Below, in pieces: positions 6,224 to 27,522 of a stretch of DNA of 27,983 nucleotides; the first letter of the stretch is position 1, and each line of letters begins with the position of its first letter. The DNA is from Candidatus Uhrbacteria bacterium (GTDB lineage: Bacteria; Patescibacteriota; Patescibacteriia; UBA9934; GWF2-40-263): assembly GCA_023246275.1 (NCBI GenBank), contig JAHFIS010000001.1:2321-30303 (forward strand), read 5' to 3'. The notes beneath the pieces are model-generated. The model searched no databases, was not told the DNA's origin, and was given only the letters and a program-made list of their open reading frames with translations. The position numbers and the translations under genes were made by a program.

Positions 6224-6311
6224 GGTGCCTCGGGGTTGTGTCGGATTCGACGAGATTGTCGAACGGTTGTGAAAACGAACCCTGCGCCGAACCATTACGG
6301 CGCAAGCGAGG

Positions 6312-6340
6312 ATGATAGCGGATTTTTGAGGGATTGTCAA
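6312..6340 (-). promoter_or_regulatory. sigma70 promoter for the CotH-like gene
   Basis: TTGACA(6340-6335)-17 bp-TATCAT(6317-6312). Confidence 0.75.
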
Positions 6341-6350
6341 CGCATCGATC

Positions 6351-6388
6351 AAAACAAAACGACCCAGCCGGTATGAACGGCGGGGTCG
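6351..6388 (-). terminator. Intrinsic terminator after rpsT
   Basis: CGACCC(C)GCCG / CGGC(T)GGGTCG stem followed by TTTTGTTTT on the minus strand. Confidence 0.7.
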
Positions 6389-9055: not shown

Positions 9056-9062
9056 ACGGCCT

Positions 9063-9091
9063 TTGACGGGATCGTTAAGGTGCTCTATAAT
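9063..9091 (+). promoter_or_regulatory. Strong sigma70 promoter toward the tRNA pair
   Basis: TTGACG(9063-9068)-17 bp-TATAAT(9086-9091). Confidence 0.8.
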
Positions 9092-9108
9092 TTCGGCACT
9101 GCCGCACA

Positions 9109-9117
9109 AGTATAGCA
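9109..9117 (-). promoter_or_regulatory. Extended -10 promoter for rmuC
   Basis: TG-C-TATACT on the minus strand; no good -35. Confidence 0.5.
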
Positions 9118-9216
9118 TGCCTCGGCTATGCAGGAGCGAGTGGATAAGCTAAACGTTTTACGACGCTTGGTTGTAAAACGAGCGGGTCTATCCGGTGACA
9201 GGGGCAAACATTGCGT

Positions 9217-9291
9217 GCCCACATAGCTCAACGGATAGAGCTGGCCCGTCCTAAGGGCAAGATGGGGGTTCGATTCCCTCTGGGGGCACCA
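9217..9291 (+). tRNA. tRNA-Arg (CCT)
   Basis: Hand-folded 75-nt cloverleaf: D-arm GCTC/GAGC with A20, anticodon CCT, T-loop GGTTCGATTCC, encoded CCA. Several non-canonical pairs. Confidence 0.85.
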
Positions 9292-9399
9292 TCCTACGCT
9301 CTAGCATTGTAGATTGAGTGCTTTGTAGAAAAGAGTTCATGAATCTAGAGTGGTTGGATTCAGAGCTTCGAATGGCAAGCCATCGAACTTAGTCTCAGC

Positions 9400-9415
9400 T
9401 GTTTCACGCGGAACA
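9400..9415. promoter_or_regulatory. parS-like site
   Basis: TGTTTCACGCGGAACA, one mismatch to the parS variant TGTTTCACGTGGAACA. Confidence 0.65.
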
Positions 9416-9446
9416 TTTACAATCGACGGAATAAGATTTGTTATAT

Positions 9447-9522
9447 GGGCCAGTAGCTCAGATGGTAGAGCGCTGCATTCGCATTGCAGAGGTCTGGGGT
9501 TCGATTCCCCACTGGTCCACCA
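9447..9522 (+). tRNA. tRNA-Ala (CGC)
   Basis: 76-nt cloverleaf, G3:U70 alanine identity pair, CTGCA/TGCAG anticodon stem with CGC, GGTTCGATTCC, encoded CCA. Confidence 0.95.
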
Positions 9523-9553
9523 AAAAAGACTCATCGAAAGATGAGTCTTTTTT
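9522..9553. terminator. Bidirectional intrinsic terminator after tRNA-Ala
   Basis: AAAAAAGACTCATC-GAAA-GATGAGTCTTTTTT, a perfect 14-bp inverted repeat with a GNRA loop. Confidence 0.9.
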
Positions 9554-9744
9554 GTAGTGGCCGTTCCCACGGCTCTGCAGTATTCGTCCAAGTGTCATTC
9601 CGGTCGAAGCTGGCAAGTCCTTGTAGAGATTGCCGCGTCGCATAAGGGCATTTCATAATGCGATGGTTCTTTGGACTTCCATCTTACTTACATCGGGAAG
9701 TTTAATTTTTACGTTAGACCAGATGATAAGAAGTGGAAATATCG

Positions 9745-9760
9745 AGTTCCATGTGAAACA
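9745..9760. promoter_or_regulatory. parS-like site
   Basis: AGTTCCATGTGAAACA, two mismatches to TGTTCCACGTGAAACA. Confidence 0.55.
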
Positions 9761-10130
9761 AGATGAATATCAACCGAATAAAGTATAAAGAAATATTTTT
9801 GATATTGATCCTCTACGAGACAAATCGCAAAAGATATTTTTCAAATTTCCCATAGTCAAATAATCATGGTTGTGGTGCTTGCTACAGTTCAATGGGCTGC
9901 AACTCCATCGTGTCATGCCATTGGCATTGCGAATGAATACAGATTCAGTTCATCGCAAAGATTGTTTCGTCGCCTGATGACTTCTCGTAATCACAAAGCG
10001 GGTAATACTGTCTGCGTTTGGACGTGAAATGAACACTGGTCGCTACTGGATATGATGACAAATTTTTTGACATAAAAGTTATTGAATTATTTTGTCAGTC
10101 ATTGACAATTCAGTAGAAGCCGAGCAAATT

Positions 10131-10280
10131 TTGTTCACTTGTCCACACCTGTGTAGACAAACTTATAACAAAGTGGATAAGTTCTTAAAAAGTGAAGATT
10201 TTGTGGGTAACTTTGAGGATTCCTCACAGTTCCTTAGTTTATTTATGAATAATTTGGCTAATTTAAGCTAATAAATTGAT
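10131..10280. other. Candidate oriC core: DnaA-box-like cluster plus AT-rich patch
   Basis: TTGTCCACA(10139 +), TTGTCTACA(10160-10152 -), TTATCCACT(10180-10172 -), TTACCCACA(10210-10202 -) and weaker TTGTTCACT(10131), TTCCTCACA(10220). 10231-10280 is 10/50 GC by hand count. Confidence 0.5.
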
Positions 10281-10308
10281 TGACGAAAGCGTGTATTCAA
10301 GGTATAAT
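10280..10308 (+). promoter_or_regulatory. Strong sigma70 promoter of the surface operon
   Basis: TTGACG(10280-10285)-17 bp-TATAAT(10303-10308). Confidence 0.8.
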
Positions 10309-10330
10309 GGAGCTACCGAATGGTCGAATT

Positions 10331-11236
10331 ATGCGAACGTCAGTCGCAGCCATGGTAATTCTGGGGTTTTTTGGTACGGCAGTTTGTACCTCCGCCCAAA
10401 TGGACTCTGCGAGTTACCAAATTCGGTGGGATACCGTTGGAAATGGCGGGGATGACACAAGCTCCTCCGCTTCCTATGTTCTCCAGGACACGACCGGAAA
10501 CGCAGGCACCGGCGACTCAACGAGCGCATCTTATGGGCTCGGGGCGGGTTATCGCGAAGGCATGGCGGTTCAGGTGCTCGATTTCACGTTCTTTGCGCAG
10601 GACAATTCCGTCTCAAAGGCCGCGACTGGACTTGCGGGGCTGACGATCACATGCAATCCGGCCGGGCTTTCCGTCGGAAACATGATTGCGCTTCTGCAGG
10701 ACAAGGGGGCCGGTCAGGTCACGGCGATCGGCAAGATCGTCTCGACGGCGGCAGGCTCGATTACCGTCGACGCTCTCAAGGACGGCGGAGTCGTGCCCGT
10801 GATCGACGGAACCAATGATTACGTCGTGCTCCTCAGCGGAGACGCATTGGGGTTCGGTACCTTGAGCGCCTCGGCCGTCCGCACATCCGTCATCGGGATG
10901 AACGTCAGCACGAATGCCTTGAGCGGATACGCGGTCCAGATTCTTTCCGACGGCGACTTACGCGACGGCTCGGAAACGATCAACCCGGTCGCCGACGGGT
11001 CCGTCACGGCTGGCTCGGAGGAATATGGCGCGCGTTCGTCCGATTCGGACATCGGCTCGTCAACATTCGATACGGAGGATTCTGCGATCTCGACGTCGTT
11101 CCTAACGGTCGCGGACAACGACGCAGCAGCATCGGATGATCGCAACTTTCTCGTCACAAAGGCATCCATTTCCTCGGCAACGGTCTCCGGAAGCTACGCG
11201 CAGACGCTCACGCTCATCGTCTCCGGACACTACTAA
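10331..11236 (+). CDS. Secreted Ser/Thr/Gly-rich beta protein with a WxL/pilin-like C-terminal domain (301 aa)
   Basis: ATG 10331 lies downstream of the promoter. Signal peptide MRTSVAAMVILGFFGTAVCTSA; N-terminal SASY repeats; STNALSGY..., EEYG and terminal SGSYAQTLTLIVSGHY strand; no anchor. Confidence 0.7.
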   Translation: MRTSVAAMVILGFFGTAVCTSAQMDSASYQIRWDTVGNGGDDTSSSASYVLQDTTGNAGTGDSTSASYGLGAGYREGMAVQVLDFTFFAQDNSVSKAATGLAGLTITCNPAGLSVGNMIALLQDKGAGQVTAIGKIVSTAAGSITVDALKDGGVVPVIDGTNDYVVLLSGDALGFGTLSASAVRTSVIGMNVSTNALSGYAVQILSDGDLRDGSETINPVADGSVTAGSEEYGARSSDSDIGSSTFDTEDSAISTSFLTVADNDAAASDDRNFLVTKASISSATVSGSYAQTLTLIVSGHY

Positions 11237-11237
11237 T

Positions 11238-12191
11238 ATGTCCCGACGATTCTTCCTCCCCCTCATCTGTGCGGTCGTCCTGTTGTGGATGCCGTGTCGC
11301 GCCCTTGCCTTCGCCGTCGCCCCCGCCTCTCTCGACCTTTCGGGACGGCGCGGCGAGACGATCAAGGACACGATCGCGGTCATCAACGACGGGAGCGCCG
11401 AACAGACGTTCACGCTCGGGACGCTCAAGTTCGTCCCGGACGAAACGTCGACGCCGAAGTTCATTCCATTTGAGACGGATCACTCGGGCCTCCCCGAGTG
11501 GATTGCGTTTCCGATAAAGACGGTCACGGTTCCCGCCAATACGAAGGTGGACGTCCCGTTCACGGTTACGATTCCCGACGCGGTTCCGTCGGGAACGGCT
11601 TACGCCGCGATTACCGTCTCCGCTGCCTCTTCCGAGGTCGTTGCGACGAACGGCGCTGCGATCAACGCGAAGATGGCTTCCCTCCTCTTCGTCACGGTCC
11701 AGGGAGAGACGGTCGAGAAGCTCGCGCTGCTCGACTTTGGCGCGACGAACTCCGGGAATACGTCGCTCCAGCTGGCGCGATGGTTCAACTTTCGCGTGCA
11801 GAACCAGGGAAACGTCGTGGCAGTCCCAAGCGGGACGATCACGCTCGTCGACGCAATCGGACGGACGCTTCTTTCTCAGCCGATCAATTCAGAACAATCG
11901 CGCGTCCTTCCAATGACCACGCGCTCGTTCGCCGGATCGATCGGTCCGATCCCGTCGAGCTTCGGCGACGCGCTCCGGTCCGAGGTCGCAAACTTCGCGA
12001 TCGGTCCCGTCACGGCAAAGCTTACGGTCGCGTCCGGTTCCCAGACCTTTTCGAAAACCGCGTCCTATTGGACGCTTCCCTGGCATCTCCTTTTGACCGC
12101 CGCGATGGCCGTCGTGATTCTCCTCGCTCTTTGGAAACTCCTGTCGCGCGGCCGGGACCGGCTCGGACGCATCAGGACGGGATCGCAATAA
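11238..12191 (+). CDS. DUF916-like (WxL-interacting / chaperone-like) protein with C-terminal TM anchor (317 aa)
   Basis: ATG 1 nt after the previous stop. Signal peptide, VAPASLDL, I.V.N.G, EWI.F....VTVPA...DVPFTVTIP....G..YAAI, V.N.GNV..P.G.ITL, then a C-terminal hydrophobic helix and basic tail. Confidence 0.7.
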   Translation: MSRRFFLPLICAVVLLWMPCRALAFAVAPASLDLSGRRGETIKDTIAVINDGSAEQTFTLGTLKFVPDETSTPKFIPFETDHSGLPEWIAFPIKTVTVPANTKVDVPFTVTIPDAVPSGTAYAAITVSAASSEVVATNGAAINAKMASLLFVTVQGETVEKLALLDFGATNSGNTSLQLARWFNFRVQNQGNVVAVPSGTITLVDAIGRTLLSQPINSEQSRVLPMTTRSFAGSIGPIPSSFGDALRSEVANFAIGPVTAKLTVASGSQTFSKTASYWTLPWHLLLTAAMAVVILLALWKLLSRGRDRLGRIRTGSQ

Positions 12192-12197
12192 TCGTGT

Positions 12198-15100
12198 GTG
12201 TTCAACCGCTGGTCAAAATCGTTCTGGAGCGTCGTATTCCTCATCGTTAGCGTAACGATGCTGGTTGCGGCTGCTTCATACGCGGCCACGGTCACCACGG
12301 CGAACGACACCCCGACGTCGCTTCAAACGTCGGCAGGCGCGAATCATACGGTGGTCTTCACCACCCCAAGCGGCGTGTCCGAAGGCGAGACGGTCGTCCT
12401 CGGATTCTCCACGGCATTCGACACCGCGTCGATCGTGGAGGACGACGTGGACGTTCAGGACGACGGGGTCGACCTCACCACCGCGGCGAATTGCGGTGGC
12501 GCGGAGCAGGCATCCGTCGCGATGGCGTCCGACGAGCTTACGGTCACGATCTGCGCCGGCGACGGCGGAACGATCGCGGCGGGAAGCGAGATTTCGGTGA
12601 GGATCGGAAACAACGCGGCGGCCTCGGGGATCGGGGCAGACCAGATCGCGAACCCGCCAACCGCGGGAACCTATTATCTCTCCATCGCCGGAACGTTCGG
12701 CGACTCCGGATCGATCGCGCTTCCCGTGCTTGAGTCGGGATCGGTCGGAGTGACGGGAACGGTCCCGTCGGCGGGAGGCGGCAGCGGAGGTGGCGGCGGC
12801 GGATGCGGCGACTCGACCGCGCCGGGGGTTTCCTCGATCGCGATCTCGGGCGTCACGACCTCGTCAGCCACGGTCAGCTGGACCACCGACGAGAACGCGG
12901 ACAGCGCGGTCGACTACGGGACCACGACGTCCTATCTGTCCGGCACGGAGTCGGACACGAGCCTCGTCACGTCTCACTCCAAGGTTCTGTCGGGGCTCTC
13001 CGAAGGAACGACCTACCACGTTCGCGCCCGGTCGAAGGACCTGTGCGTGAACGAGGCCGTCTCTGTGGATCAGACCTTCATGACTGCCGACGCGAGCGCG
13101 CCGGTCATCTCAAACGTCGTCGCGACCGTCACCTCGTCCTCGTCCGTCACGGTCACCTGGACGACCGACGAGCCAGCGACGAGCTACGTCCACTACGGCC
13201 CGACCTCGTCCTACGGGACGACCGTCGGCGACTCGTCGTTGACCACGACCCACTCGGTCATCCTGACAGGGCTGGACGCGGGAACGACCTATCACTTCGA
13301 CGTTCTTTCCTCGGATGCGTCGGGAAATTCCTCGTCGTCGACGGACGCGACGTTCGCAACCACGTCGAACCCGGCCCCGACGAATGTCTCCGACTTGTCC
13401 GTCGTGCCAGGCGACGGAACGCTTACGATCAGCTGGTCGAATCCGACCGATGCCGATCTGGCAGGCGTGCGCGTCCTCCTTTGTTCCGCGGGATACCCGT
13501 CAGGCCCGACAGATTCGAGCTGCTCGGTTGTCTACACGGGCCTAGCCAACTCGACGAACGTTTCCGGTCTAACAGACGGCACAACCTATTACGTCGGTGT
13601 CTTCGCATATGACACCGTTGGGCAGTTCGCTTCTGGCGCTCTCGGTTCGGGTACCCCGAATGCGTCAGTAGAAGAGGTGCCCATACCTGCAGAGGTTCCT
13701 TTACCTGTAGTGACTCCTCCCGAAGGGGAGCCGACCGTTCCGGCCGCGACTGGGACGACCGCGATTCCTTCGGCGGCAGTCCCTGCAGGGACAGAAACCC
13801 CCGCAGAGCCGGCGCTTCCCATCCCCCCGACCACGGTCGCGGCCGGGGAGCTTGTCCCACAGGGGGATGTCTCGTTCCTTGTCGCCAACGGGCAGATCGA
13901 GCTCGAACCGTCCGGCTCCGGCACGGTTCACTTGCTCGGCAACCGCCCGTTACGCGTGATGCTTGAAACAAAGCATCTCATGAAGCCAGTCTCCCGCGTG
14001 CAGCTCATCCTTGGCGCCAGCGCCTATATCATGGCCATGGCCCAGGACGGCTCGACGTATGCGGCCGACGTCACCTCCCCAGGTGCGCCCGCCGACTACG
14101 GAACCGCGGTGAGCCTCAGCTATGCGGATGGAACGGTCCAGTCCATCACGTTTACCCTCGAGGTCGAAGGCGACGGGTACGCCTACTTCCAACAGGACGG
14201 ACAAATCTCTCGCGTCGGAGACGCGAACGTCACGCTGGTCGCAAACGGTACTGCCCCCTGGGACGGATCCCCCTTCGCGCAGTTCAACCCGGCGACGACA
14301 ACAACGGACGGGCAATTCGGATGGTACGTGCCGAACACGACGTACGCTCTTTCCGCGGACGCGAGCGGGTACTCGCATGCCGAGACAGGGACGTTTACCG
14401 TGACGGACCACATCGCCAACCAATCCATCCGCCTGGAGCCGGTCCCGGCGGAGGTCGTTTCTCCGACGCAACTCACCAACACGGTGAGGTCGAACCTTTC
14501 CATCGCGGGCATGCTCGTGTCCGCGTCGCTCGAATCCGTTCGCTCCGTTCCCGGGGTCGAACGGGCGGCCGCGGCCTCCACCCCCGCGCTCGCCGTCGTG
14601 ACGGCACTCTCTGCCGCCGTGCTCTTTACCAGCTTCGATCTCCTTCCGTTCCTTCAATACGTCTTCACGTCCCCGTTCCTCTTCTTCTGGCGTCGCAAGC
14701 GCCAGGCGTACGGAGTGGTCTACAACGCCGTGACGAAAGTACCGCTGGACCTTGCGACCGTTCGGTTGTTCCGCATGCCGGACGACTGGAACGGTGACGC
14801 GAGCGTGGTCGGCAGGCTCGTTCAGAGCCGCGTCACCGACAAGGGCGGACGATATTTTTTCCTTCCTCCCCCGGGCCGGTACCGCATTGCCGCGCTTAAG
14901 AGCCAGTTCGTCTTTCCGTCCAAGTATCTTGGAGGAGCGAAGGACGACGGCATGTTCCTTGACGTCTACCACGGAGAGCCAATCCTTGTGACGGATGCGA
15001 ACGCGAGCGTCTCTGCAAACGTTCCGCTCGATCCGGCGCAGGCTGCCGAGCACCGAACCCCGAAGCAAATTGTGCGCCGAGCGCGGCTGCGCGTGCTGCA

Positions 15101-15515
15101 GAGGGTCGTCGCCATGCTGGGCGTATTGCTCGCCGTCGTGGTCGCGATCATCCGCCCGACCGCCTTTTCAATCGGCATGGTCGGCGTCCAGATCGCGTTC
15201 CACTTCCTCGTTCGCCGCCTCGCGGTTCCCCGCAAGCCAAAGTCCTGGGGAATCGTGTACGACAAGGCTACGGGCCGGCCGCTCGAGCACGTGATCGCCC
15301 GCGTGTTCGAACCGAAATATAACAAGCTGCTCGAGACCGCGGTCACGGACAGCAGGGGCCGCTACACCTTCCTTCTCGGGCCGAACGAGTACTACACCGT
15401 CTACGAAAAAGCGGGATTCTCGAACGCCGAAATTCGGCCGATCGACTATCGCAACCTAACGGAGCCCTCGGAATTCTCACGCGACGTTCAGCTGTCGCGC
15501 GAGGAGTCGCTATGA
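12198..15515 (+). CDS. Large surface protein: N-terminal beta domain, 3 FN3-like repeats, Pro-rich linker, carboxypeptidase-regulatory-like domains, TM segments (1105 aa)
   Basis: Signal peptide; Gly linker; FN3 signatures (ATVSWTTDE...V.YG.T.SY...H...L.GL..GTTYH) twice plus a third (ISWSNP...GLTDGTTYY); TDGQFGW / VTDKGGRYFF / VTDSRGRYTF motifs; hydrophobic helices near the C-terminus. Confidence 0.8.
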   Translation: MFNRWSKSFWSVVFLIVSVTMLVAAASYAATVTTANDTPTSLQTSAGANHTVVFTTPSGVSEGETVVLGFSTAFDTASIVEDDVDVQDDGVDLTTAANCGGAEQASVAMASDELTVTICAGDGGTIAAGSEISVRIGNNAAASGIGADQIANPPTAGTYYLSIAGTFGDSGSIALPVLESGSVGVTGTVPSAGGGSGGGGGGCGDSTAPGVSSIAISGVTTSSATVSWTTDENADSAVDYGTTTSYLSGTESDTSLVTSHSKVLSGLSEGTTYHVRARSKDLCVNEAVSVDQTFMTADASAPVISNVVATVTSSSSVTVTWTTDEPATSYVHYGPTSSYGTTVGDSSLTTTHSVILTGLDAGTTYHFDVLSSDASGNSSSSTDATFATTSNPAPTNVSDLSVVPGDGTLTISWSNPTDADLAGVRVLLCSAGYPSGPTDSSCSVVYTGLANSTNVSGLTDGTTYYVGVFAYDTVGQFASGALGSGTPNASVEEVPIPAEVPLPVVTPPEGEPTVPAATGTTAIPSAAVPAGTETPAEPALPIPPTTVAAGELVPQGDVSFLVANGQIELEPSGSGTVHLLGNRPLRVMLETKHLMKPVSRVQLILGASAYIMAMAQDGSTYAADVTSPGAPADYGTAVSLSYADGTVQSITFTLEVEGDGYAYFQQDGQISRVGDANVTLVANGTAPWDGSPFAQFNPATTTTDGQFGWYVPNTTYALSADASGYSHAETGTFTVTDHIANQSIRLEPVPAEVVSPTQLTNTVRSNLSIAGMLVSASLESVRSVPGVERAAAASTPALAVVTALSAAVLFTSFDLLPFLQYVFTSPFLFFWRRKRQAYGVVYNAVTKVPLDLATVRLFRMPDDWNGDASVVGRLVQSRVTDKGGRYFFLPPPGRYRIAALKSQFVFPSKYLGGAKDDGMFLDVYHGEPILVTDANASVSANVPLDPAQAAEHRTPKQIVRRARLRVLQRVVAMLGVLLAVVVAIIRPTAFSIGMVGVQIAFHFLVRRLAVPRKPKSWGIVYDKATGRPLEHVIARVFEPKYNKLLETAVTDSRGRYTFLLGPNEYYTVYEKAGFSNAEIRPIDYRNLTEPSEFSRDVQLSREESL

Positions 15516-18500
15516 ATTCGTGGATAATTCAAAACCGATTTTCCCGCCCGTTCGCGGCCGCGCTCATCGCGCTGGTCGCCTTTGCGGTCCTGTCCTCGCC
15601 CATCCTGACGGCCTACGCGGCCGCCCCTGTGAACGCCATCTCGTACCAGGGGCGGCTGCTCGATTCTTCCGGGAATCCCGTTTCCGACGCAAGCGCCGAG
15701 TTCGTGTTCCGCCTGTTCGATTCCGCCTCGGGCGGCACCTGCCTCTGGGAGTCCGACGACGGGGCCGCGTGCGACGACCCGGACGAGACGCAGACGGTCG
15801 CGATCAACGACGGACTCTTTTCAGAAAATATCGGATCCTCGGTCGATCCCGACGGATTGTCCGAGGCATATCCCGTCGACCTTTCCGGGGTCTTTGAGAA
15901 CAACTCGGCCGTCTATCTCGAGGTCGTCATCAACGGAGAGACCCTTTCCCCGCGCAAGCAGATCGTCGCGGCTCCGTTCGCGCTCAACTCGCAGTCGCTC
16001 GACGGCCTCGACTCGACCGCTTTTCTTTCGTCGACCGGCGACACGGCGAGCGGCGCGTTCGATTTCACCGGCGCGACGATCGCCGGAACGAGCGCCCTGT
16101 CGTTCGAAGGCGCGACGACCGACGGATTCCAGACGACCCTTTCGTTTGCGGACCCGACCGCGGACAATACGGTTACCTTCCAAAATGCAAGCGGCACGGT
16201 CGCGCTTACCTCCGACATCCCGGCGGGATCGTCGCTCTGGGAAACGGGAGCGTTCGGAACGTACGAGGACGACGCGAACGTGATCGTCGGAACCTCCGGC
16301 GACGAGACGATCTCGAACGCCGCCTTCACGCTGTCCGGCAACGACCTGTTCGTCGCGGACACGCTTGGCGTCGAGGGCTCGGTGTACAGCGACGGCGCGT
16401 TCGTCGCGGGAACGACCAGCTACGGAAACGGTGACATTTCTACCACGGGAGGACAGAACGTCTCGCTGACACCGAGCGGTGGAATCGTTGACGTTATCGG
16501 TACCACCATCCGTGGATCGGGCGCCTTGGAAATTAAGTCGCAGTCCGCAAATCTTTCCCTGAACGCGGACGGGGGCGACATCGTCATCGGCGACGATCCC
16601 AGCGATAAGTTCATGCGCTTCGGAGGAAACGGAATGCGCCAGATTGAGATTGGAACGAACGCCGGCGCGGGGTACACGAACGTTCATTCCGGTACGAACG
16701 GGACGCTCCTCGATTCGACCGGAGCGATCACGATCGACTCGGCGGACTGGGACGTCAGCGCGACGGGAAACATGACGGGAATCGGATCAATTTTCTCGGA
16801 CGGCCTGATTACCGCGAACGCCGGGATCGCGACGTCTGCGGCCACGTCGCTCAGCATCGTCAGCGGGACGACCGGAACGATGACCCTTGATTCCGGAACC
16901 ACGGGAACCGTGAACATCGGAACGGGAGACGGAGGAAAGGCGATCAACATCGGAACGGACAATACCGTCGGTAACGCGATTGCCGTCGGCGCGCCGAATG
17001 GAACGCTCGACATGTATGGCACGATGACCATGAACGGACCCGTCCTCGTGAACGGGAACTTTGAGGTCACGGGCGGCGGGGCGACGGCGACGATTCAGAC
17101 CCCCTTCGTCGCAAACGGCGACGTGACGATGAACAACGTCGGAGCGAACGCGATCCTGATCGGATCGGCGGCGGACACGGTGACGCTCGCCTCGGACGCC
17201 CTCTCGCTTACGGACGACAATTGGAGCGTTACCGCAGCCGGAGTGGCAAAATTCGTCTCGATCGGCGCGGGAGGAACCGCGGGAACGGGGTCGTTTACGA
17301 CGCTTTCCGCGACTGACGACGTGACCTTGTTTTCCGCGGCCGACTTCGACCAGTCTGGATCGACGGGAACGTTCAAGACGGGTACCGGCTCGGTCACGTT
17401 GAATGGGAACGTGAACGTCGTCAGCGGAAAGACCCTTTCGCTGGCAGATCTTGCTTCCACAATGTTGAAAACCAACGGATCCGGAACACTCGTCGCGGCG
17501 ACGTCCGGGACGGACTATCTGAGCGGCTCGCTCGCGGACAACAAGGTCCTCATCGGAAACGGCGCGGGACTTGCGACGGCCGTTACCCTCTCGGGCGACG
17601 TTACGAGCACGAACGCCGGCGTTTTGACGATCGGAAGCGGGAAGGTCAACAGCGACAAGGTGCTTGATGACTCGATCATGAATGCCGACATCAATTCGGC
17701 CGCCGCGATCGCGCTTTCCAAGCTCGCGTCCGGCTCGTCGATCGTCACGTCGCTTGCCCCTCCGTCCGGGTCGAGCGCGAACGGCGGATCTATCGCGGCG
17801 AACGTCCTCACTCTGTCCCTCGCGGACGGGACGAACCCTGGGGTCGTTTCGACAGGTTCGCAGACATTTGCGGGAGACAAGACGTTCGCGGGTACGCTTA
17901 CGGCGAACGGCGTCGTCGCGCTCGGCGACAATGGCGACACGGTTGCGATCAACTCGAGCGATTGGGACGTGGACGCGACTGGCGCGATGTCAGGCATCGC
18001 AACGGTCGCTTCGAACGAAAACCAGGGGGTCCTGTTCGCTAACGTCCCCATAACGGGAACGGACGCGACCCTGCATTCCGTCGGTCTCCAAATCGACGGC
18101 AACTCCGGCGTCCTCGTTACGGCCACCGGTGACGGCGCGGGAGGCGTAGGAGATCGGATCGTCGACATTGGAAAGTCGGGCGGAACGGACACGGTAAACG
18201 TCGGCGACGCGACGTCGTCGATCTCGATCGGCGCGGTGGGAGCGAACGTCGCCCTGACGGACACGCAGTGGTCGATAACCGGCGCGGGCGCCGGGTCATT
18301 CTCGTCCCTGTCTCTCGGCGGAAATCTCGACATGACGAACAATTTGATTCTCAACGTCGGCAACGCGAACACGGACTTCACGGCCGGCGGCGGCTTGACG
18401 ATCGCGGACGACCTTTCCGTCGGCGGAACGGCCCCGTCCTCCTCGCCGTTCGGCGTGGACGAGTCCGCGAACACGATCTACATCGGCGAAGGAGCAAACG

Positions 18501-21500
18501 GAAACGGGACACTGACGTTCAAGGCGTCGGACGCGGACACGGGAAACGTCGCGTATACGACGGACGATCTTTGGGCATTCACGGGAGGCAACGTGTTTAT
18601 CGGCGGAACGTCGGTAGGCTCCGTGAAGTCGACGTTCGTACCAAACGGCGACGACTTGTACGTGGCCGGCGATATCGCGGCGCAGTCGAACATGTACGCG
18701 GACTCGTTTACGGCCGGAGACGCGTCGACCGTCTATGCCAACGGATCCATCACGACGACCGAATTCGGAATGGTGAACAACATGGATGTGACGGGCGGCG
18801 TTGACACGTACACGTATTCCATTCAAATTGACGGGAATACGGCGCTTTCCGTGGCCGCTACGGGAACGGGGGGCGGATTTGTCGGGGCGCGAACCATCCA
18901 GCTTGGAGTTTCGGCGGGCGCGGACAGCGTTGGGATTGGCGACTCAAACGCCGACGTATCCGTTACCGACGCGCAGTGGTCCGTGTCCGGCGCCGGCGCC
19001 GCGTCATTTTCGTCGCTTGGGATGACGGGCAACCTGGACATGGCGACGCACACGATCACGCAGATCGGAAACGCGGCGACGAACTTTACGGGGACCGGCG
19101 GCCTGACGCTCGCTGGAGCGTTCACGGCAAACGGGACCGTTGACGTAAATGCCCTATCCACGTTCAACACCGACATGGACTTCCTGCTCGCCGGGACGGA
19201 AAACGTCCAGCTGACGAGCACGACCGGAGCCTCGTCGGTGAATGCGTTAGCGATTCGGCTTGAGAATAACGACGCGGTCGGCGCGGGAACACAGCGAGGA
19301 ATGTACGTGACGAACGAAAGCAACGCGACAAGCGCGACTACCGAGTCGCTCATCACCTTGGACAACCTGGATTCCGATACCCTGACGGACGCGTTAAATA
19401 TCTCATCGACGGGCACGATCACGGACGCGATCGATGCTTCCGCCGCGAACATTGTCAATGCGCTGAATGTCGGCGCCAATACAATTCTGGGAACGACTGG
19501 CGTTGTCGATTATACAAACTTTGACGTCGCCTCGAATGGTAACGTGACCGTTGCGGGCGGACAGGGAATCGACGTGAACGCGGCGGGAACGCTGGCGCTC
19601 GGTAATGTGACGGCAACGACGATCAATTTGGGCAGCACAGCCGTTACTCGCGCCATCAACGTCGGAACCGGAGGAAACGCCGACACGATCCTCATCGGGA
19701 CCGGCGCGGGGGCAGATGTCATCGGAATCGGCGCGTCTACCGGAACGCTCAATCTCACGTCAGGCGCGGGCGTCATCGACTTCAATGAGTTTGACGTTTC
19801 GGGAACGACCGGAAGCGTGACGATTAATGACACTGGAGAGGATCTCGGTGCGTTGACGGTGGAAGGGACGAATTTGGATATCAATTCGCTTGATTTTGTT
19901 GGAGCAGGGACGATCACGACGACGGGGGGCGCGTCAAAGCTCATTCTTGATTCCGGATCCGGAACGATATTTGGCGCAAATGGCGACGCATTCATGGTGT
20001 CGGCGCCTCCGATCGGCGCGGATCTCGCGATCCTTAGCTCGCCGTCGCTCGTCATGATGGGATCGTATGACAGCGACGCGACGGGATCATTTCTGAGTAG
20101 CCAGGTCAGCGGCTCCATTTTTCACAAGGTGACGGATGCAGCGGGTGGTATTCCGAAATCAGAACTGGACTTCGATATCGCCGGAGGAACGGCGGAGATG
20201 ACTTTGGATTACCTGGGAAATCTCAAGGCGGTCGGAGGTACGACGTTCGGGGATGCTAGCGGACCTGACCAGTTTGCCTTTACGACGAGCGCGGCAACCG
20301 TGGACGCGATGACGTTGACGGCGAACTCGCTGACATCCGGGGCCGGATTGACCATTCAGCGCGCCGCCGGCGGAGCCCCATTTACCAGCACGTCCGGTCT
20401 GCTCGACGTGAAACAGCTCAATGTCAACGCCGGTTCGACTGGCTACGTCGCTCAATTCGTGAACGCCGGTACGGGTCCGAGCGTCTTCGTGGACGCGAAC
20501 GGGAGTACAGGAGGAACGGTCAGCGATACGGTGGGAGGCGCCGTGCATATCAGCAATACGGGAAATGCGGATTATGGACTGACTGTTTACTCAAATCAAC
20601 CAGCATCGACGAGTCCGTTGGCAATGTTTTATACGGACAATAACTCTTTCGACACGGATACCGTGCTTATCAAACATGACCGAACGGCATTGACCCCAGG
20701 AAGCACGTTGGATATGGCAGCACTTCGCATCCAGGTTTCTGATCCCGGTGATCCTGCGGATAATGCTGTCAATAATGGCGGTATCGTAATTGATACGGAT
20801 ATTTTCGATGCGGTTCATGGAGATAACCTTGGATCGGAGGTTTTCCAGATCCGGGCGTCAAGCGGCGCGAATACCGTATTTGCCGTTGACCCGGATGGTG
20901 ACTTTGGTTATGACGGCACAGCGTATACGTCGGCCTCCGATCTTGCCGAGTCATATCAAAGCACGGATACGCTTGAGCCTGGAGAAATCGTTGTTACCGG
21001 GACAGGAACGGACTCAATTCAACGAACCTCCACTTCATACCAAAACGCAATTCTTGGTGCGATTTCAACGCAGCCAGGTATTCTTTTGGGCTCTTCTGGA
21101 GCGGACGGGGCTCCGGACACCGGATATATGTTGGCTCTTGCCGGTCGCGTCCCAGTCAAAGTTGACGACGAAAATGGTCCGATCGCGATCGGCGATCCGA
21201 TTGCTTCCAGTTCCACTGCCGGTTATGGAATGAAGTCAACCCAGGCGGGAGCGATTGTTGGCTTCGCGCTGGAGGCGTATTCCGGAATCGGCCCGGGATC
21301 GATCAGCGTGTTTGTCAGCCCGCAGTTCTACGTTGGGTCGGTCCTTGCGACGGACGGCTCGGCGACCGTCGTCTCTGGCGATCTCGCTATGGCCTCGACG
21401 GGAACCGCGACCGCCACGGCGTCGGGGTTCGATTCGAACGCTTTCCAGCTTCGCGGATCGGGCTGGGACGGAGCGGCGGCGCAGAACGTGCAGATGTCCA

Positions 21501-22885
21501 TGGCGACGGACGTGACGAACTCGTCTGATTACCGTCTTTCCATAAAGAACACGGCAGGATCCGAAGTCGCGTACGTTTCCCAGGCCGGCGACATGGCGAT
21601 TGCGGGAAGACTCTATCCGTCAGATCGCGGAACGCTGCAGACCTCCAAGTATATCTATTACGACGGTTCATCCGGAAGCGGCGGCGACTTCATGCGGACG
21701 AACGCGTCTGGCTGGGCGACTGGATCCTACGACTTCGCGGAAATGTTCCCGTCCGTCGACGCGCTCGAGGCCGGAGACGTGGTCATGTTTGGCACGAACG
21801 ACGAGAGCGTTCTGAAGTCGACGGGTTCGTCGGCGAGCCTCGCGGGTATCGTCTCGACGCGACCGGGGTTCCTTGCGGGAGAAAATCGGGCGGGAGACTA
21901 TCCGATCGCGCTTGCCGGTCGCGTGCCGACGAAGGTCACGCTTGAGAACGGGTCGATCGCGGTCGGCGACCCACTGACGGCGTCGGCGACGAAGGGGTAC
22001 GCAATGAAAGCGGTGGCTTCCGGGCCGATTGTCGGGTATGCGCTTGAGGCGTATTCCGGCGCGGCCGGGGCGGACGACCGGATCATTGCGTTCGTGAATG
22101 CCGGCTATTGGAGCGGCGGGCCGACGAGTCCGACGCCTGGGACGAGGAATACCGCCTCCACGATCATCGTCACCCGGAACGCGAAAAACTTGGCCTCGCT
22201 CAACATGGAAGGGAACGTGTACATGGCGGGAAACGACATTCTCGGCGTCCGCCGTATCGCCGGGCTCTCGGACCGATGGTCGCTAGAGGAGGACGGAACG
22301 GTGAAGACGGAGGGAACGTTCCAGAACGTGATCGAGACCTACCAGGGCGACAGGGTAGCAACGACCGCGGTAACATCGCCGGACGTACAGATCACGCTCG
22401 TCGGAACTGCGACGCTCGTGAACGGGGAGGCGGTGGTACGGTTTGAGGATATCAGTTCGTCATTCAACGACATGACGTCCACCTCCGCGCCGATTCGCGT
22501 GGTCGTGACCCCAAACGGGCCGGTTTCGTTGTACGTCTACGAGAAGAACAACGACGGGTTCGGCGTCCGCCAGATGAACGGAGCCGATTCCGACGTGACC
22601 TTCGACTGGATGGTGAGCGCGTTCCGGAAGGACTTCGAGCCAGCCGTCGTTCCCGAGGGAGCATTGGCTGGCGAGCCTGTCGAGATCGTCGCGCCGATCG
22701 TCGAATTGCCGGTTGACCTGATCGCGACAAACCCGACGGTCGTTCCCGAACCGGACCCCGGCATTGCCGAGGAGACGCTCTCGGATTCCTCATCTACGAC
22801 CGATGAAGCAAGTCCGGTGAGCCCGGACACGGCCATTCCCCCTGCCGATTCGACGGAATCGAACCCCTTGGTAAGCCAGCCATAA
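15512..22885 (+). CDS. Giant secreted phage-tail-fibre-like adhesin with two peptidase-G2-like (intramolecular chaperone) domains (2457 aa)
   Basis: ATGA overlap with the previous gene; signal peptide ending AYA. N-terminal ISYQGRLLD...GLFS..IG...YLEV.INGETLSPR..I.AAPFAL domain; long Gly/Thr/Ser/Ala/Asn beta-repeat body; DLAE (20939) and DFAE (21731) each followed by GD.V...G..ST.PG...G...AL.GRVP.KV..ENG.I..GDP...S...GY.MK; C-terminal beta module and acidic Pro-rich tail. Confidence 0.8.
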   Translation: MNSWIIQNRFSRPFAAALIALVAFAVLSSPILTAYAAAPVNAISYQGRLLDSSGNPVSDASAEFVFRLFDSASGGTCLWESDDGAACDDPDETQTVAINDGLFSENIGSSVDPDGLSEAYPVDLSGVFENNSAVYLEVVINGETLSPRKQIVAAPFALNSQSLDGLDSTAFLSSTGDTASGAFDFTGATIAGTSALSFEGATTDGFQTTLSFADPTADNTVTFQNASGTVALTSDIPAGSSLWETGAFGTYEDDANVIVGTSGDETISNAAFTLSGNDLFVADTLGVEGSVYSDGAFVAGTTSYGNGDISTTGGQNVSLTPSGGIVDVIGTTIRGSGALEIKSQSANLSLNADGGDIVIGDDPSDKFMRFGGNGMRQIEIGTNAGAGYTNVHSGTNGTLLDSTGAITIDSADWDVSATGNMTGIGSIFSDGLITANAGIATSAATSLSIVSGTTGTMTLDSGTTGTVNIGTGDGGKAINIGTDNTVGNAIAVGAPNGTLDMYGTMTMNGPVLVNGNFEVTGGGATATIQTPFVANGDVTMNNVGANAILIGSAADTVTLASDALSLTDDNWSVTAAGVAKFVSIGAGGTAGTGSFTTLSATDDVTLFSAADFDQSGSTGTFKTGTGSVTLNGNVNVVSGKTLSLADLASTMLKTNGSGTLVAATSGTDYLSGSLADNKVLIGNGAGLATAVTLSGDVTSTNAGVLTIGSGKVNSDKVLDDSIMNADINSAAAIALSKLASGSSIVTSLAPPSGSSANGGSIAANVLTLSLADGTNPGVVSTGSQTFAGDKTFAGTLTANGVVALGDNGDTVAINSSDWDVDATGAMSGIATVASNENQGVLFANVPITGTDATLHSVGLQIDGNSGVLVTATGDGAGGVGDRIVDIGKSGGTDTVNVGDATSSISIGAVGANVALTDTQWSITGAGAGSFSSLSLGGNLDMTNNLILNVGNANTDFTAGGGLTIADDLSVGGTAPSSSPFGVDESANTIYIGEGANGNGTLTFKASDADTGNVAYTTDDLWAFTGGNVFIGGTSVGSVKSTFVPNGDDLYVAGDIAAQSNMYADSFTAGDASTVYANGSITTTEFGMVNNMDVTGGVDTYTYSIQIDGNTALSVAATGTGGGFVGARTIQLGVSAGADSVGIGDSNADVSVTDAQWSVSGAGAASFSSLGMTGNLDMATHTITQIGNAATNFTGTGGLTLAGAFTANGTVDVNALSTFNTDMDFLLAGTENVQLTSTTGASSVNALAIRLENNDAVGAGTQRGMYVTNESNATSATTESLITLDNLDSDTLTDALNISSTGTITDAIDASAANIVNALNVGANTILGTTGVVDYTNFDVASNGNVTVAGGQGIDVNAAGTLALGNVTATTINLGSTAVTRAINVGTGGNADTILIGTGAGADVIGIGASTGTLNLTSGAGVIDFNEFDVSGTTGSVTINDTGEDLGALTVEGTNLDINSLDFVGAGTITTTGGASKLILDSGSGTIFGANGDAFMVSAPPIGADLAILSSPSLVMMGSYDSDATGSFLSSQVSGSIFHKVTDAAGGIPKSELDFDIAGGTAEMTLDYLGNLKAVGGTTFGDASGPDQFAFTTSAATVDAMTLTANSLTSGAGLTIQRAAGGAPFTSTSGLLDVKQLNVNAGSTGYVAQFVNAGTGPSVFVDANGSTGGTVSDTVGGAVHISNTGNADYGLTVYSNQPASTSPLAMFYTDNNSFDTDTVLIKHDRTALTPGSTLDMAALRIQVSDPGDPADNAVNNGGIVIDTDIFDAVHGDNLGSEVFQIRASSGANTVFAVDPDGDFGYDGTAYTSASDLAESYQSTDTLEPGEIVVTGTGTDSIQRTSTSYQNAILGAISTQPGILLGSSGADGAPDTGYMLALAGRVPVKVDDENGPIAIGDPIASSSTAGYGMKSTQAGAIVGFALEAYSGIGPGSISVFVSPQFYVGSVLATDGSATVVSGDLAMASTGTATATASGFDSNAFQLRGSGWDGAAAQNVQMSMATDVTNSSDYRLSIKNTAGSEVAYVSQAGDMAIAGRLYPSDRGTLQTSKYIYYDGSSGSGGDFMRTNASGWATGSYDFAEMFPSVDALEAGDVVMFGTNDESVLKSTGSSASLAGIVSTRPGFLAGENRAGDYPIALAGRVPTKVTLENGSIAVGDPLTASATKGYAMKAVASGPIVGYALEAYSGAAGADDRIIAFVNAGYWSGGPTSPTPGTRNTASTIIVTRNAKNLASLNMEGNVYMAGNDILGVRRIAGLSDRWSLEEDGTVKTEGTFQNVIETYQGDRVATTAVTSPDVQITLVGTATLVNGEAVVRFEDISSSFNDMTSTSAPIRVVVTPNGPVSLYVYEKNNDGFGVRQMNGADSDVTFDWMVSAFRKDFEPAVVPEGALAGEPVEIVAPIVELPVDLIATNPTVVPEPDPGIAEETLSDSSSTTDEASPVSPDTAIPPADSTESNPLVSQP

Positions 22886-22999: not shown

Positions 23000-24040
23000 A
23001 TGAACGCTCTTTTCGTTCTTTCTGGACTGCTTGGCTGCTACGGCTTCATCACCCCGCAGGACGCTTCCCGCGCGATGGACCGCGACCAGGACGGGTTCGA
23101 CTACCGCGCGGACTGCAACGACGACGATGCGTCGATTGGCGCGGACACGATCTGGTACGTGGACGCGGACGGCGACGGCGACGGCGCACTGAATGCGACG
23201 GGAACCGTCTCGTGCGACGACCTGTCCGTGAACGGGTTTGTCCTGACGAACGGCGACTGTAACGATGCCGACGCGTCCATCTCGCCGACGGCGACCGAGG
23301 CGTGCAACGACATCGACGACAACTGCAACGGCGCGGTCGACGAGTCCGAGGAATGCCAGGGTCACAACACCGACGCGGACGGCGACGGATTCACGGAGGA
23401 CGTCGACTGCGACGACACGGACGCGGATGTGTATCCGAACGCGCCCGAGGTCTGGTACGACGGTATCGACGAGGATTGCCTTGGCGACGACGACTACGAC
23501 CAGGACGGCGACGGGTTCGACGCTGTCGACTACGGCGGGGAGGACTGCGACGACACGGTTGCGGCAGTGAATTCGTCGGCGGAGGAAATCTGCGACGACG
23601 GGATCGACAATGACTGCAGCGGTACCGAGAATGATGCGGATGACGCTGACGGGGATCAGTACACCGAGTGCACTGGCGACTGCAACGATGCAGATCCGGA
23701 TGTCGGGCCTTTTGCATATGATGCGTCATGCGATGGCGTCGACAACGACTGCGATGGAGAGGTCGACCAGCACGACGACCAGGACGACGACGGCGTCACC
23801 ACTTGTGATGGCGACTGCGACGACCACAACGCCAATCGCTATCCTGGAAATCCCGAGGTCTGCAATTATCTCGATGATGATTGCGACGGGTATGAGGATA
23901 ACGTTACGACGGACGTTGACGCCGATGGCTACAACACCTGTCAGGACTGCGATGACGACAATCCGGAAATCCATCCGAATGCGGAAGAGATCGTCGACGA
24001 TCCTTACGACTCCAACTGCAATGGTTCTCTGGACACCTAG
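23000..24040 (+). CDS. Lipoprotein made of Asp/Cys-rich putative metal-binding (MopE-related) repeats
   Basis: MNALFVLSGLLG-C lipobox; seven DC(N/D)D units, most with P.A.E.C..ID.DC second halves, and DxDxDG calcium-type motifs. Confidence 0.85.
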   Translation: MNALFVLSGLLGCYGFITPQDASRAMDRDQDGFDYRADCNDDDASIGADTIWYVDADGDGDGALNATGTVSCDDLSVNGFVLTNGDCNDADASISPTATEACNDIDDNCNGAVDESEECQGHNTDADGDGFTEDVDCDDTDADVYPNAPEVWYDGIDEDCLGDDDYDQDGDGFDAVDYGGEDCDDTVAAVNSSAEEICDDGIDNDCSGTENDADDADGDQYTECTGDCNDADPDVGPFAYDASCDGVDNDCDGEVDQHDDQDDDGVTTCDGDCDDHNANRYPGNPEVCNYLDDDCDGYEDNVTTDVDADGYNTCQDCDDDNPEIHPNAEEIVDDPYDSNCNGSLDT

Positions 24041-25875: not shown

Positions 25876-27522
25876 TTGGCAGACATCACATCGCTCGCGA
25901 AGGGCCGGTACAAGATCGTTCAGCGTCTCGGGGAAGGCGGCATGGCCGAGGTGTTCCTCGCGCTCGACACGTTCCGCGACATCCCGGTCGCGATCAAGTG
26001 TCCCTTGGCGGACGTGCTTGAAAAGGACAGGAAGAACTTTCGGTTCATGCAGGAGGTCGCGATCCACGGCCGCGTCATCCACCCGAACGTCGTCGTCATG
26101 CTGGACGCGCGAACCGAGGTCCTGTCCGACGGGAGCCGCATGCCGTACATGGTCCTGGAGTACGCTCCGGGAATTAACGCATATGACTGTTCCGGGCGTC
26201 CGGAGGAAGGCGGGTTCGGTCCGCTTCCCCCCGGGGTTGCCGGGCGCATCATGCTTTCCGTGGTCGGGGCGCTCGCGGCGATGCACCGGCAGGGAATCTG
26301 CCACCGCGACGTCAAGCCGGCGAACATCATGGTCGGCTGGGACTGCGTGGGATACCGATCGACCGGCTGGGATCCCCATGCCGTCAAGCTGATGGACTTC
26401 GGGATCGCGTTCGACGCGGACGACGACGACCGCAGGACTACCGCCAAGGCGATCCTCGGCAGCAAGCTGTACATGTCGCCCGAGCAGGACGGCGACGCGA
26501 AGAACGCCGATCACCGGTCGGATATCTTCTCCGCCGGGGCGACGCTCTACGCGCTGCTTACCGGGCAGGATCCCGCCGTCGACATCGAGGTTCAGGCGAT
26601 CACGGAGGACACGTTCGCGCTCCTGTCGGAGCCATGGAGGACGATCGTGTTCGGCGCGACGCGGTACCGGCGCCACGAGCGCGCCTATCAGACCGCCGAG
26701 GAGCTCGGTTCCGCGATCGAGTCCGCGCTCCGCGACTGTCCGGACAGGCTCGGCCCGTTCGAGCACTGGCTCGCGCAGAAAAAAATCGCGTCGCCCGTGG
26801 AGGCCGCGCTGCGACGGGCTCGCGGAAAGGGACTGACGATCGTCGCGGAGGCCGAGGAACCGGCGTCGTCCCTGTCCGGGACCGGACACACGCGCTGGTT
26901 CGACGCGGACAACGTGGACCTTCCCGAGCCGGAGGAGGTACCCGTCGCCCCGTTGCCGAAGAGCCGCGTCCGTTACGCCATGGCGGCCGTCGCGTTTGCC
27001 GCCATGGCGTCGCTCGTCCTGATCACTGCCATGGGTGGAAACGGGGCGAAGGACGGGAATTCCGCGCAGCCGGACACTGTTGTCGCCGTCGTTCCCGCCG
27101 TACTGCCAACGCCAAGCGTTGGCAGTCAGGGTTCCGCGGCCGTCGCTCCCTCGCCGGCCGTCGACGCCGCGCCCCCCTTGCCGAGCTCGAAGCCCAGGCA
27201 TCCGACGGGACCCGCCATTCCCGTTGCGACGGTCGCCGCGCCCGTCGTCCCCGTTCCGGTACTCCCAGCTCCCGTCGTGGCCCCGGCCCCCGCGGCCGAT
27301 ACCGGTTCCGTGCACCTCGTGAAGGGCGCGTCCTCGATCGTCCTTGTCGGCGCGGACGGCGTGGCACATCCCGCCGGGCGCGTATCGGCCGGAACGTACC
27401 AGATCAAGGCTTCGTTTCGGCCGTCGTCCGACCCCGTGAACGCCGGAACCGTTACCGTCATCGCGGGACAGGACCTGTCCGTGTCCTGCAGCGAGCCGAT
27501 GGCGCTGTGCAACGCCCGCTAG
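25876..27522 (+). CDS. Hanks-type Ser/Thr protein kinase with one TM helix and an extracytoplasmic Pro-rich + beta domain
   Basis: LGEGGMAEVF, VAIK, HPNVV, HRDVKPANI, DFGIA, YMSPEQ, SDIFSAG; TM YAMAAVAFAAMASLVLITAM; TTG start after AGGAGG. Confidence 0.93.
   Translation: MADITSLAKGRYKIVQRLGEGGMAEVFLALDTFRDIPVAIKCPLADVLEKDRKNFRFMQEVAIHGRVIHPNVVVMLDARTEVLSDGSRMPYMVLEYAPGINAYDCSGRPEEGGFGPLPPGVAGRIMLSVVGALAAMHRQGICHRDVKPANIMVGWDCVGYRSTGWDPHAVKLMDFGIAFDADDDDRRTTAKAILGSKLYMSPEQDGDAKNADHRSDIFSAGATLYALLTGQDPAVDIEVQAITEDTFALLSEPWRTIVFGATRYRRHERAYQTAEELGSAIESALRDCPDRLGPFEHWLAQKKIASPVEAALRRARGKGLTIVAEAEEPASSLSGTGHTRWFDADNVDLPEPEEVPVAPLPKSRVRYAMAAVAFAAMASLVLITAMGGNGAKDGNSAQPDTVVAVVPAVLPTPSVGSQGSAAVAPSPAVDAAPPLPSSKPRHPTGPAIPVATVAAPVVPVPVLPAPVVAPAPAADTGSVHLVKGASSIVLVGADGVAHPAGRVSAGTYQIKASFRPSSDPVNAGTVTVIAGQDLSVSCSEPMALCNAR

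Follow-up and report, generated by a model that had tools for sequence, protein, structure and literature searches.

The C-terminal domain D4 of gp12, the pre-neck appendage protein of Bacillus phage phi29, is an autochaperone of the G2 type (Pfam PF11962, Peptidase_G2; PDB 3GQH, 3GQK and 3SUC). It is built from a pair of consecutive beta-tulip domains, forms the extreme C-terminus of a trimeric, beta-rich fiber and is cut off after trimerization. The junction reads TWS|DFAEYF; mature gp12* ends at residue 691 and the crystallized D4 fragment begins with D692. The Asp and the Glu of this motif reportedly have a catalytic role, which is said to be described by Xiang et al. 2009 and in MEROPS. 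A review of the phi29-like phages was also consulted, and nothing on processing was found in it. The phi29 authors have already remarked on a likeness of D4 to bacterial adhesins. A comparable mode of working is described for Peptidase S74 domains such as those of the K1F endosialidase and the L-shaped tail fiber of phage T5, which are conserved and C-terminal, nucleate the trimerization of a variable fiber or spike and then cut themselves off. Here, we describe a gene from a Candidatus Uhrbacteria bacterium whose product harbors two G2-like modules in one chain. It is located on the forward strand at positions 15512-22885 of the window, i.e. the whole analyzed stretch of 27,983 nucleotides (assembly GCA_023246275.1, contig JAHFIS010000001.1, positions 2,321 to 30,303), and consists of a single very long open reading frame with a stop-free translation of 2457 amino acids (aa), a secreted fiber-like protein designated P0001. 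The G2 autochaperone is known from phi29; its tandem cassette in fibers of Patescibacteria is real and widespread, and by analogy to phi29 the modules may each mark a cut.

The D-x-A-E pattern occurs only twice in P0001, as DLAE at residue 1810 (nucleotide 20939) and as DFAE at residue 2074 (nucleotide 21731), with a spacing of 264 aa. Each of these motifs starts a module that resembles the double beta-tulip autochaperone of phi29. The first module, M1, comprises residues 1810-1936 (20939-21319, forward strand; D1810, E1813) and lies 648 aa from the C-terminus, and the second, M2, comprises residues 2074-2196 (21731-22099, forward strand; D2074, E2077) and is followed by 261 aa. M1 and M2 share 48% identical and 66% similar residues over 120 aa (BLASTP E 1e-30), a similarity far beyond chance, which on sequence grounds identifies them as a true internal duplication. 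An initial annotation of the window had proposed two tandem domains of the peptidase G2 type at 20930-22115. This span corresponds to residues 1807-2202 and takes in both modules, and the two motifs were correctly placed with respect to residues, nucleotides and spacing.

The modules were compared with known structures on the basis of an AlphaFold model of residues 1780-2374, in which the predicted local confidence (pLDDT) was mostly 82-96 within both modules. With VIA-align, M1 (model residues 31-157, protein residues 1810-1936) matched residues 692-854 of 3gqh_A with a Z-score of 14.4 and a root mean square deviation (rmsd) of 2.5 A over 113 aa at 26% identity. M2 (model residues 288-417, protein residues 2067-2196) matched residues 686-854 of pre-mature gp12 (3suc) with a Z-score of 14.0 and an rmsd of 2.5 A over 115 aa. 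A Foldseek search with the whole 595-aa model gave E-values of 1.4e-3 or worse, and the matches of the individual domains were clear only with VIA-align. In the predicted model both modules display two consecutive beta-tulips, so the G2 fold on which the initial annotation had made its proposal depend is found in both. The idea that the two copies represent the two beta-tulips of a single D4 was rejected, as each copy alone spans D4 residues 692-854. Furthermore, DLAE 1810 and DFAE 2074 are positioned at the very start of their modules and align with DFAE 692-695 of phi29, including D692 and E695, in agreement with a common D-[FLIVY]-A-E start. Because D1810 and D2074 each align with D692, with which the released fragment begins, they occupy the position equivalent to the cut in phi29. 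From these predicted structures it is near certain that both M1 and M2 represent complete D4 homologs in compact form, although they are shorter (approximately 125 aa versus 163 aa) and only 22-26% identical to D4. The next-best structural matches were beta-tulip decoration or cement proteins (PF09956; the base of phi29 gp8.5 (6QYY), HFTV1, Sf11 and TW1), which share the beta-tulip fold at Z-scores of 9-12 but are stand-alone, uncleaved capsid proteins lacking both a fiber and a D-x-A-E start.

Relationship to the G2 family was also assessed with sequence profiles. The initial annotation had named the PF11962 model as a check, and P0001 stays below its gathering score of 25 bits. M1 attained 19.5-20.3 bits, with E-values between 4e-4 and 7e-4, and was aligned to positions 33-101 of the 228 in the profile only; M2 was not matched, whether Pfam was scanned with the entire protein, its C-terminal 678 aa or each module singly. 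M1 of the homologs P0040, P0089 and P0106 passes the model at 30.9-38.2 bits, M2 of the same three proteins scores 13.6-15.5 bits, and a phi29 control scored 329.5 bits. As the scores of P0001 itself are below the cut-off, its modules are termed G2-like distant relatives and not members of PF11962. The assignment of both copies as G2-like nevertheless holds by fold over the whole of D4 and by more sensitive profiles. A profile built from 53 aligned homologous cassettes (A1) matched, among the sequences in PDB, the C-terminal gp12 fragment 3gqh_A (E 0.016) with DFAE placed on the first four residues of the chain, and comparison of a module alignment (A2) with residues 670-854 of phi29 gp12 by hhalign resulted in an E-value of 1.5e-5. 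A profile was required, since phmmer with the C-terminal 678 aa found no match among the PDB sequences. When phage records were searched with M2 by tblastn, Pseudomonas jumbo phages and one Sinorhizobium phage were retrieved at 33% identity, and phi29 was not found. PF09956 matched M2 of P0001 below its cut-off (16.7 versus 24 bits) and reached E-values of 0.01 or lower in 18 of the 53 homologous cassettes (best 1.1e-6), on the second half of the modules; these sub-threshold matches are attributed to the fold likeness between beta-tulips and decoration proteins. The S74 domain, a helical Ser-Lys dyad domain, differs from G2 in fold and chemistry. An S74-type chaperone was rejected: Pfam listed no S74 family when scanned with complete P0001, its last 678 aa, each module by itself and the 53 homologous cassettes.

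Judged by the homologs retrieved, the tandem arrangement is a family-wide trait and the rule in this protein family, not a peculiarity of one gene. A word-indexed search yielded more than 279 proteins, 1351-4300 aa long and 46-77% identical to the cassette over 83-100% of its length, which belong, where named, to Candidatus Uhrbacteria or Patescibacteria. A module hidden Markov model (HMM), run without motif-based selection on all 120 stored proteins of the family, detected two modules in 119 and three modules in one. In M1, the Asp is conserved in 116, the Ala in 115 and the Glu in all of 119 proteins. In M2, Asp and Ala are conserved in 119/119 and the Glu in 118/119, so that the second Glu, whose loss the initial annotation would have taken as evidence against its proposal, is retained as well as the first. 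The residue preceding the motif (P1) is a Tyr in 117/119 M2 modules. A wider set of 219 module-bearing proteins, made up of family matches, representative matches and a paralog from the same genome, contains 213 proteins with two modules, five with three and one with a single module, and the motif statistics remain unchanged. Together with independent doublings in other lineages, these numbers mark the tandem as a trait of the family. Nearly all of the two- and three-module proteins are from Patescibacteria. Thus the initial assumption that one copy is the usual case applies to phages and to the same-genome paralog but not to this family. An exhaustive search of cluster representatives with the module profile gave 29,650 matches at E-values of 1e-3 or lower, 23,535 of them at 1e-10 or lower. 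The Pfam model evidently covers only a small part of this module superfamily.

In a maximum likelihood (ML) tree of 122 modules, all M2 modules are located on one side of a branch with a support of 100/92 and have short branches. The M1 modules are diverse, and single modules as well as modules of other lineages are interspersed among them. The paralog in the same genome, P0123 (L005; G000:C17 5374-10338, minus strand), is 1654 aa long and contains one M1-type module that is 38% identical to M1 and sits directly at the end of the fiber. Immediately behind the module come a beta-sandwich and a Pro/acidic tail, an arrangement that is collinear with that of M2 and the C-terminus of P0001. The N-terminus of P0123 may be lost at the end of the contig. 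The virion structural protein gp359 of Pseudomonas jumbo phage PA5oct likewise possesses one C-terminal module, which is 33% identical to M2. Both proteins resemble P0001 in carrying a related module at the end of a fiber-like protein, and P0123 also in its beta-sandwich and acidic tail, but they contain one module only, and neither a middle piece nor an M2-type module is present in them.

Among 121 Patescibacteria genomes of an even sample, 47 contain the module, and in approximately eight of these it is doubled in frame with a spacing of 264-630 aa. Independent recent duplications were recognized among the doubled modules of L011, P0164, P0202 and P0159. Most of the extra modules in other lineages retain a D-x-[A/G/R]-E motif, whereas the second module of L012 is truncated and without the motif region and that of L010 has lost the Asp. 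As the motif decays in such degenerate modules, the fold does not depend on it, and its strict retention in both M1 and M2 argues for catalysis. Three-module relatives are P0061, P0159, P0164, P0202 and P0208, with some modules about 600 aa or more apart. Within one three-module protein, two modules are often most closely related to each other, so that a fiber segment appears to have been duplicated together with its module repeatedly and recently. Many Patescibacteria genomes also contain short open frames of approximately 260-310 aa with one module-like match (e.g. G024:C1:134602-135000, G022:C1:191422-191799 and G064:C1:12161-12478), which may encode stand-alone beta-tulip proteins.

The distribution of conserved and variable regions along P0001 was analyzed by cutting the protein into segments and counting matches among 217 relatives. 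A probable Sec signal peptide with an Ala-x-Ala end, recognized in the translation without use of a predictor, comprises residues 1 to approximately 36 (15512-15619, forward strand, as are all features of the gene). It is followed by an N-terminal domain (residues ~37-175; 15620-16036) that is found in 171/217 relatives at a median identity of 47% and, due to this conservation, is probably a common base or attachment domain of about 140 aa. The fiber body (residues 176-1809; 16037-20938) is rich in Gly, Thr, Ala and Ser and is hypervariable, with its pieces matched by only 2-9 of the 217 relatives at median identities of 36-44%. Even the 105 aa directly before M1 are matched in nine relatives only (38%). 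From M1 onwards the picture is reversed. M1 itself is present in 217/217 relatives at a median identity of 44%, and the middle piece (residues 1937-2073; 21320-21730), composed of a linker, a small beta domain and a near-invariant stretch of about 40 aa, in 202/217 (53%). M2 is again present in all 217 and has the highest median identity (62%). The segment behind M2 (residues 2197-2286; 22100-22369) comprises a low-confidence linker, with a pLDDT of 35-53 at model residues 431-470, and short beta elements, and is matched in 152/217 relatives (46%). It leads to a C-terminal beta-sandwich (residues 2287-2372; 22370-22627) that is kept in 177/217 (53%). The low-complexity tail (residues 2373-2457; 22628-22885, including the stop codon), rich in Pro, Glu, Asp and Ser, is matched in 0/217, so that no identity value is given. 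The beta module and acidic tail that had been anticipated after M2 are thus both present.

The switch from hypervariable to conserved coincides with the M1 motif. The same boundary pattern is known from phage fibers and spikes that carry a variable receptor-binding end from which a conserved chaperone at the C-terminus is removed by cleavage. As conservation begins exactly at this motif, a cut at M1 most likely frees the variable fiber tip, and the conserved tail of approximately 650 aa would be a maturation device. S1809, the last residue of the fiber body, would be P1 of this putative first cut, and Y2073, the last residue of the middle piece, P1 of a putative second cut.

Trimer formation was assessed by structure prediction with three copies of the middle piece and M2 only (A1 residues 196-425, protein residues 1975-2204). 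The interface score ipSAE was 0.95 compared to 0.00 for the best control, with a pLDDT of 92 and a contact agreement of at least 96% among runs. Proteins solved as one-chain pairs attained the ipSAE mark used here in 20 of 30 cases, and those solved as single chains in one of 23. In silico, the middle piece and M2 are therefore predicted to form a homotrimer, as does the beta-rich fiber that ends in D4. The near-invariant stretch preceding the M2 site (residues 2035-2072) has a low pLDDT and is disordered in the monomer model but makes dense inter-chain contacts in the predicted trimer. This suggests that the middle piece appears as an obligate intertwined trimer, and it shows a weak fold likeness to the Bd2439 fiber (Z 5.2). 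The predicted inter-chain interface includes Y2073-D2074 and E2077. The location of the scissile residues and the Glu in the interface fits the rule of phi29 that trimerization precedes cutting. For the beta-sandwich, the best structural match was residues 688-758 of the cyanophage Pam1 tailspike (7eea_C; Z 10.2, rmsd 1.8 A, 25% identity), and matches to the tip of the R2 pyocin fiber and the C-terminus of the Sf6 tailspike had Z-scores of 6.8-7.6. Tailspike-type C-terminal domains can be independent trimerization units in P22-type spikes.

Based on these results, the gene product is proposed to be a Sec-exported, homotrimeric, phage-tail-fiber-like surface fiber of an Uhrbacteria-type cell, in which M1 and M2 both cut. 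We assign this reading a probability of roughly 0.5. The last ~650 residues would act as a maturation cassette composed of M1, the middle piece, M2, the beta-sandwich and the tail. Once the C-terminus has been exported, the beta-sandwich and M2 would trimerize first, set the register of the three chains and fold the intertwined middle piece. M1 would trimerize next and nucleate the zippering of the long variable fiber from the C- to the N-terminus. After trimerization, the chains would be cut before each Asp, at S1809|D1810 and Y2073|D2074, with the conserved Glu (E1813 and E2077) activating a water molecule, if the chemistry of phi29 is assumed. The first cut would result in a mature fiber of ~1770 aa after removal of the signal peptide and expose its hypervariable distal end, probably the tip that binds the target; the second would split the released pro-piece into pieces of ~264 aa and ~384 aa. 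Speculatively, the second cut may aid dismantling and shedding of the pro-piece outside the cell without the ATP that phi29 uses for release; since the carrier is a Sec-exported cell protein and not a virion part assembled in the cytoplasm, an ATP-dependent release is unlikely here.

Several observations weigh against this proposal. Cleavage at both sites, and the three products that the initial annotation deduced from it, are extrapolated from homology, and any role of the second cut is speculative. The P1 residue is a Tyr in M2 and an Ala or Ser in M1, compared to the Ser of phi29. In phi29 a single module forms the extreme C-terminus, whereas P0001 harbors two, of which M1 is internal and M2 is trailed by ~260 aa that include a beta-sandwich and an acidic tail. 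The tailspike-like beta-sandwich is a type of domain that is retained in mature phage tailspikes. With respect to the family assignment, M1 of P0001 scores under the curated cut-off of PF11962, M2 has no match at all, and all Pfam matches are confined to profile positions ~30-105 of 228. The outcome of the trimer prediction may partly reflect a memory of the solved phi29 trimer in the model, and it covers the M2 side only.

Somewhat doubtful, but the best of the alternatives, is that only one of the modules cuts. In one variant M1 cuts and frees the fiber, and M2 serves as an uncleaved trimerization nucleus within the discarded pro-piece; in the other M2 cuts, M1 is an in-line trimer node and the mature fiber ends with M1 and the middle piece. 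The different evolution of the two modules suggests different jobs: M2 modules form a well-supported, slowly evolving group, and M1 modules are diverse and group with single modules at fiber ends. A bulky Tyr takes the place of the phi29 Ser at P1 of M2, which never reaches the Pfam cut-off for G2. The second variant gains from the ~40 near-invariant residues before the M2 site; in the predicted trimer these are intertwined in the manner of phi29's D3-D4 junction. However, more than 200 proteins have kept Asp and Glu almost without exception in both modules, and a non-catalytic copy should drift, as degenerate extra modules elsewhere have done by losing the motif. The second variant further conflicts with the location of the conserved-variable boundary at M1 and not at M2, because a tip formed by M1 and the middle piece would be unusually conserved for an adhesin.

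A broader proposal, which we regard as rather speculative, is that Patescibacteria produce polyprotein-like fiber precursors. In-line G2-type modules, two in P0001 and three in some relatives, 170-1200 aa apart, would each fold the preceding trimeric segment and then cut, so that several trimeric pieces would arise from one gene. The conserved M2 cassette would then be an ATP-independent shedding device or would become a small, lectin-like extracellular trimer with a function in its own right.

It is improbable that neither module cuts and that the beta-tulip pairs are in-line nodes for trimerization or clamping, with the beta-sandwich as distal tip or anchor and D-x-A-E as a structural element of the first tulip strand. 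Beta-tulips do serve as general trimer-interface modules in the uncleaved decoration proteins, the beta-sandwich resembles domains retained in mature tailspikes, and fibers of other lineages with modules 370-630 aa apart can be read as containing structural nodes. Yet the decoration proteins lack a D-x-A-E start, which is shared only by D4 of phi29 at the same position, the motif decays in degenerate modules, and a cassette that held the specificity-conferring tip would be expected to vary, whereas here it is conserved beside a hypervariable body. A chimeric or misassembled gene was rejected, as the two-module cassette is present in more than 200 independent proteins.

The base of the fiber offers a further comparison. 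Residues 34-131 match NCBIfam NF053851 (Bdello_MAT_N) with 18.2 bits (E 0.0017), well below the cut-off of 60, so that this is a lead and not a membership. The mosaic adhesive trimer (MAT) fibers of Bdellovibrio bacteriovorus resemble P0001 as cell-encoded, phage-fiber-like trimeric adhesins whose N-terminal base is conserved and whose body is a mosaic. We know of no G2-type cassette in MAT fibers.

The genome from which the window derives has a size of 0.89 Mb in 151 contigs and is 79% complete. The neighbors of the fiber gene are ordinary cellular genes, encoding SPFH, CotH-like, radical SAM, RmuC and MopE-repeat proteins and a Ser/Thr kinase. Directly upstream, three co-oriented genes (10280-15515, forward strand) encode an exported protein, a protein with a weak WxLIP_PGBD match and a membrane protein of 1105 aa with three fn3 domains. 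The ATG of the fiber gene overlaps the stop codon of the gene for the 1105-aa protein (ATGA). According to a 2026 preprint on the Pam pilus of the Candidate Phyla Radiation (CPR), a tail-fiber-like protein consistently co-localizes with the pam operon, and the upstream trio may represent a divergent CPR pilus operon of the Pam type. Downstream, a protein with six MopE-type metal-binding repeats (23000-24040, forward strand; E 4.7e-47) and a Hanks-type Ser/Thr kinase (25876-27522, forward strand; E 1.1e-34) are encoded. On the minus strand are genes for a CotH-like protein (4709-6352; weak, 25.9 bits), a radical SAM protein (6743-7858; weak match to the C-terminus of lysine-2,3-aminomutase) and RmuC (7925-9118), adjoined by an intergenic region of lower GC content at approximately 9100-10280.

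A search of the literature for tandem G2 modules and for intramolecular chaperones in Patescibacteria returned nothing relevant, and no publication on the present cassette was found. If the proposal is correct, the doubled G2 autochaperone would be, to our knowledge, the first known case of serial intramolecular chaperones in one chain, and a chemistry of phage assembly would operate extracellularly and independently of ATP. As the Pfam model probably misses most of the 29,650 representatives, many giant proteins now labeled hypothetical would be better annotated with an improved family model. Bacteria of the CPR live attached to other cells, and how they recognize these is largely obscure. 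The giant fibers, in which a hypervariable body lies between a conserved base and a conserved, putatively self-processing end, are good candidates for recognition organelles because of this architecture and of the tail-fiber-like gene reported beside the Pam operon. The mature end, most likely S1809, would define the part of the fiber to be expressed as the binding tip.

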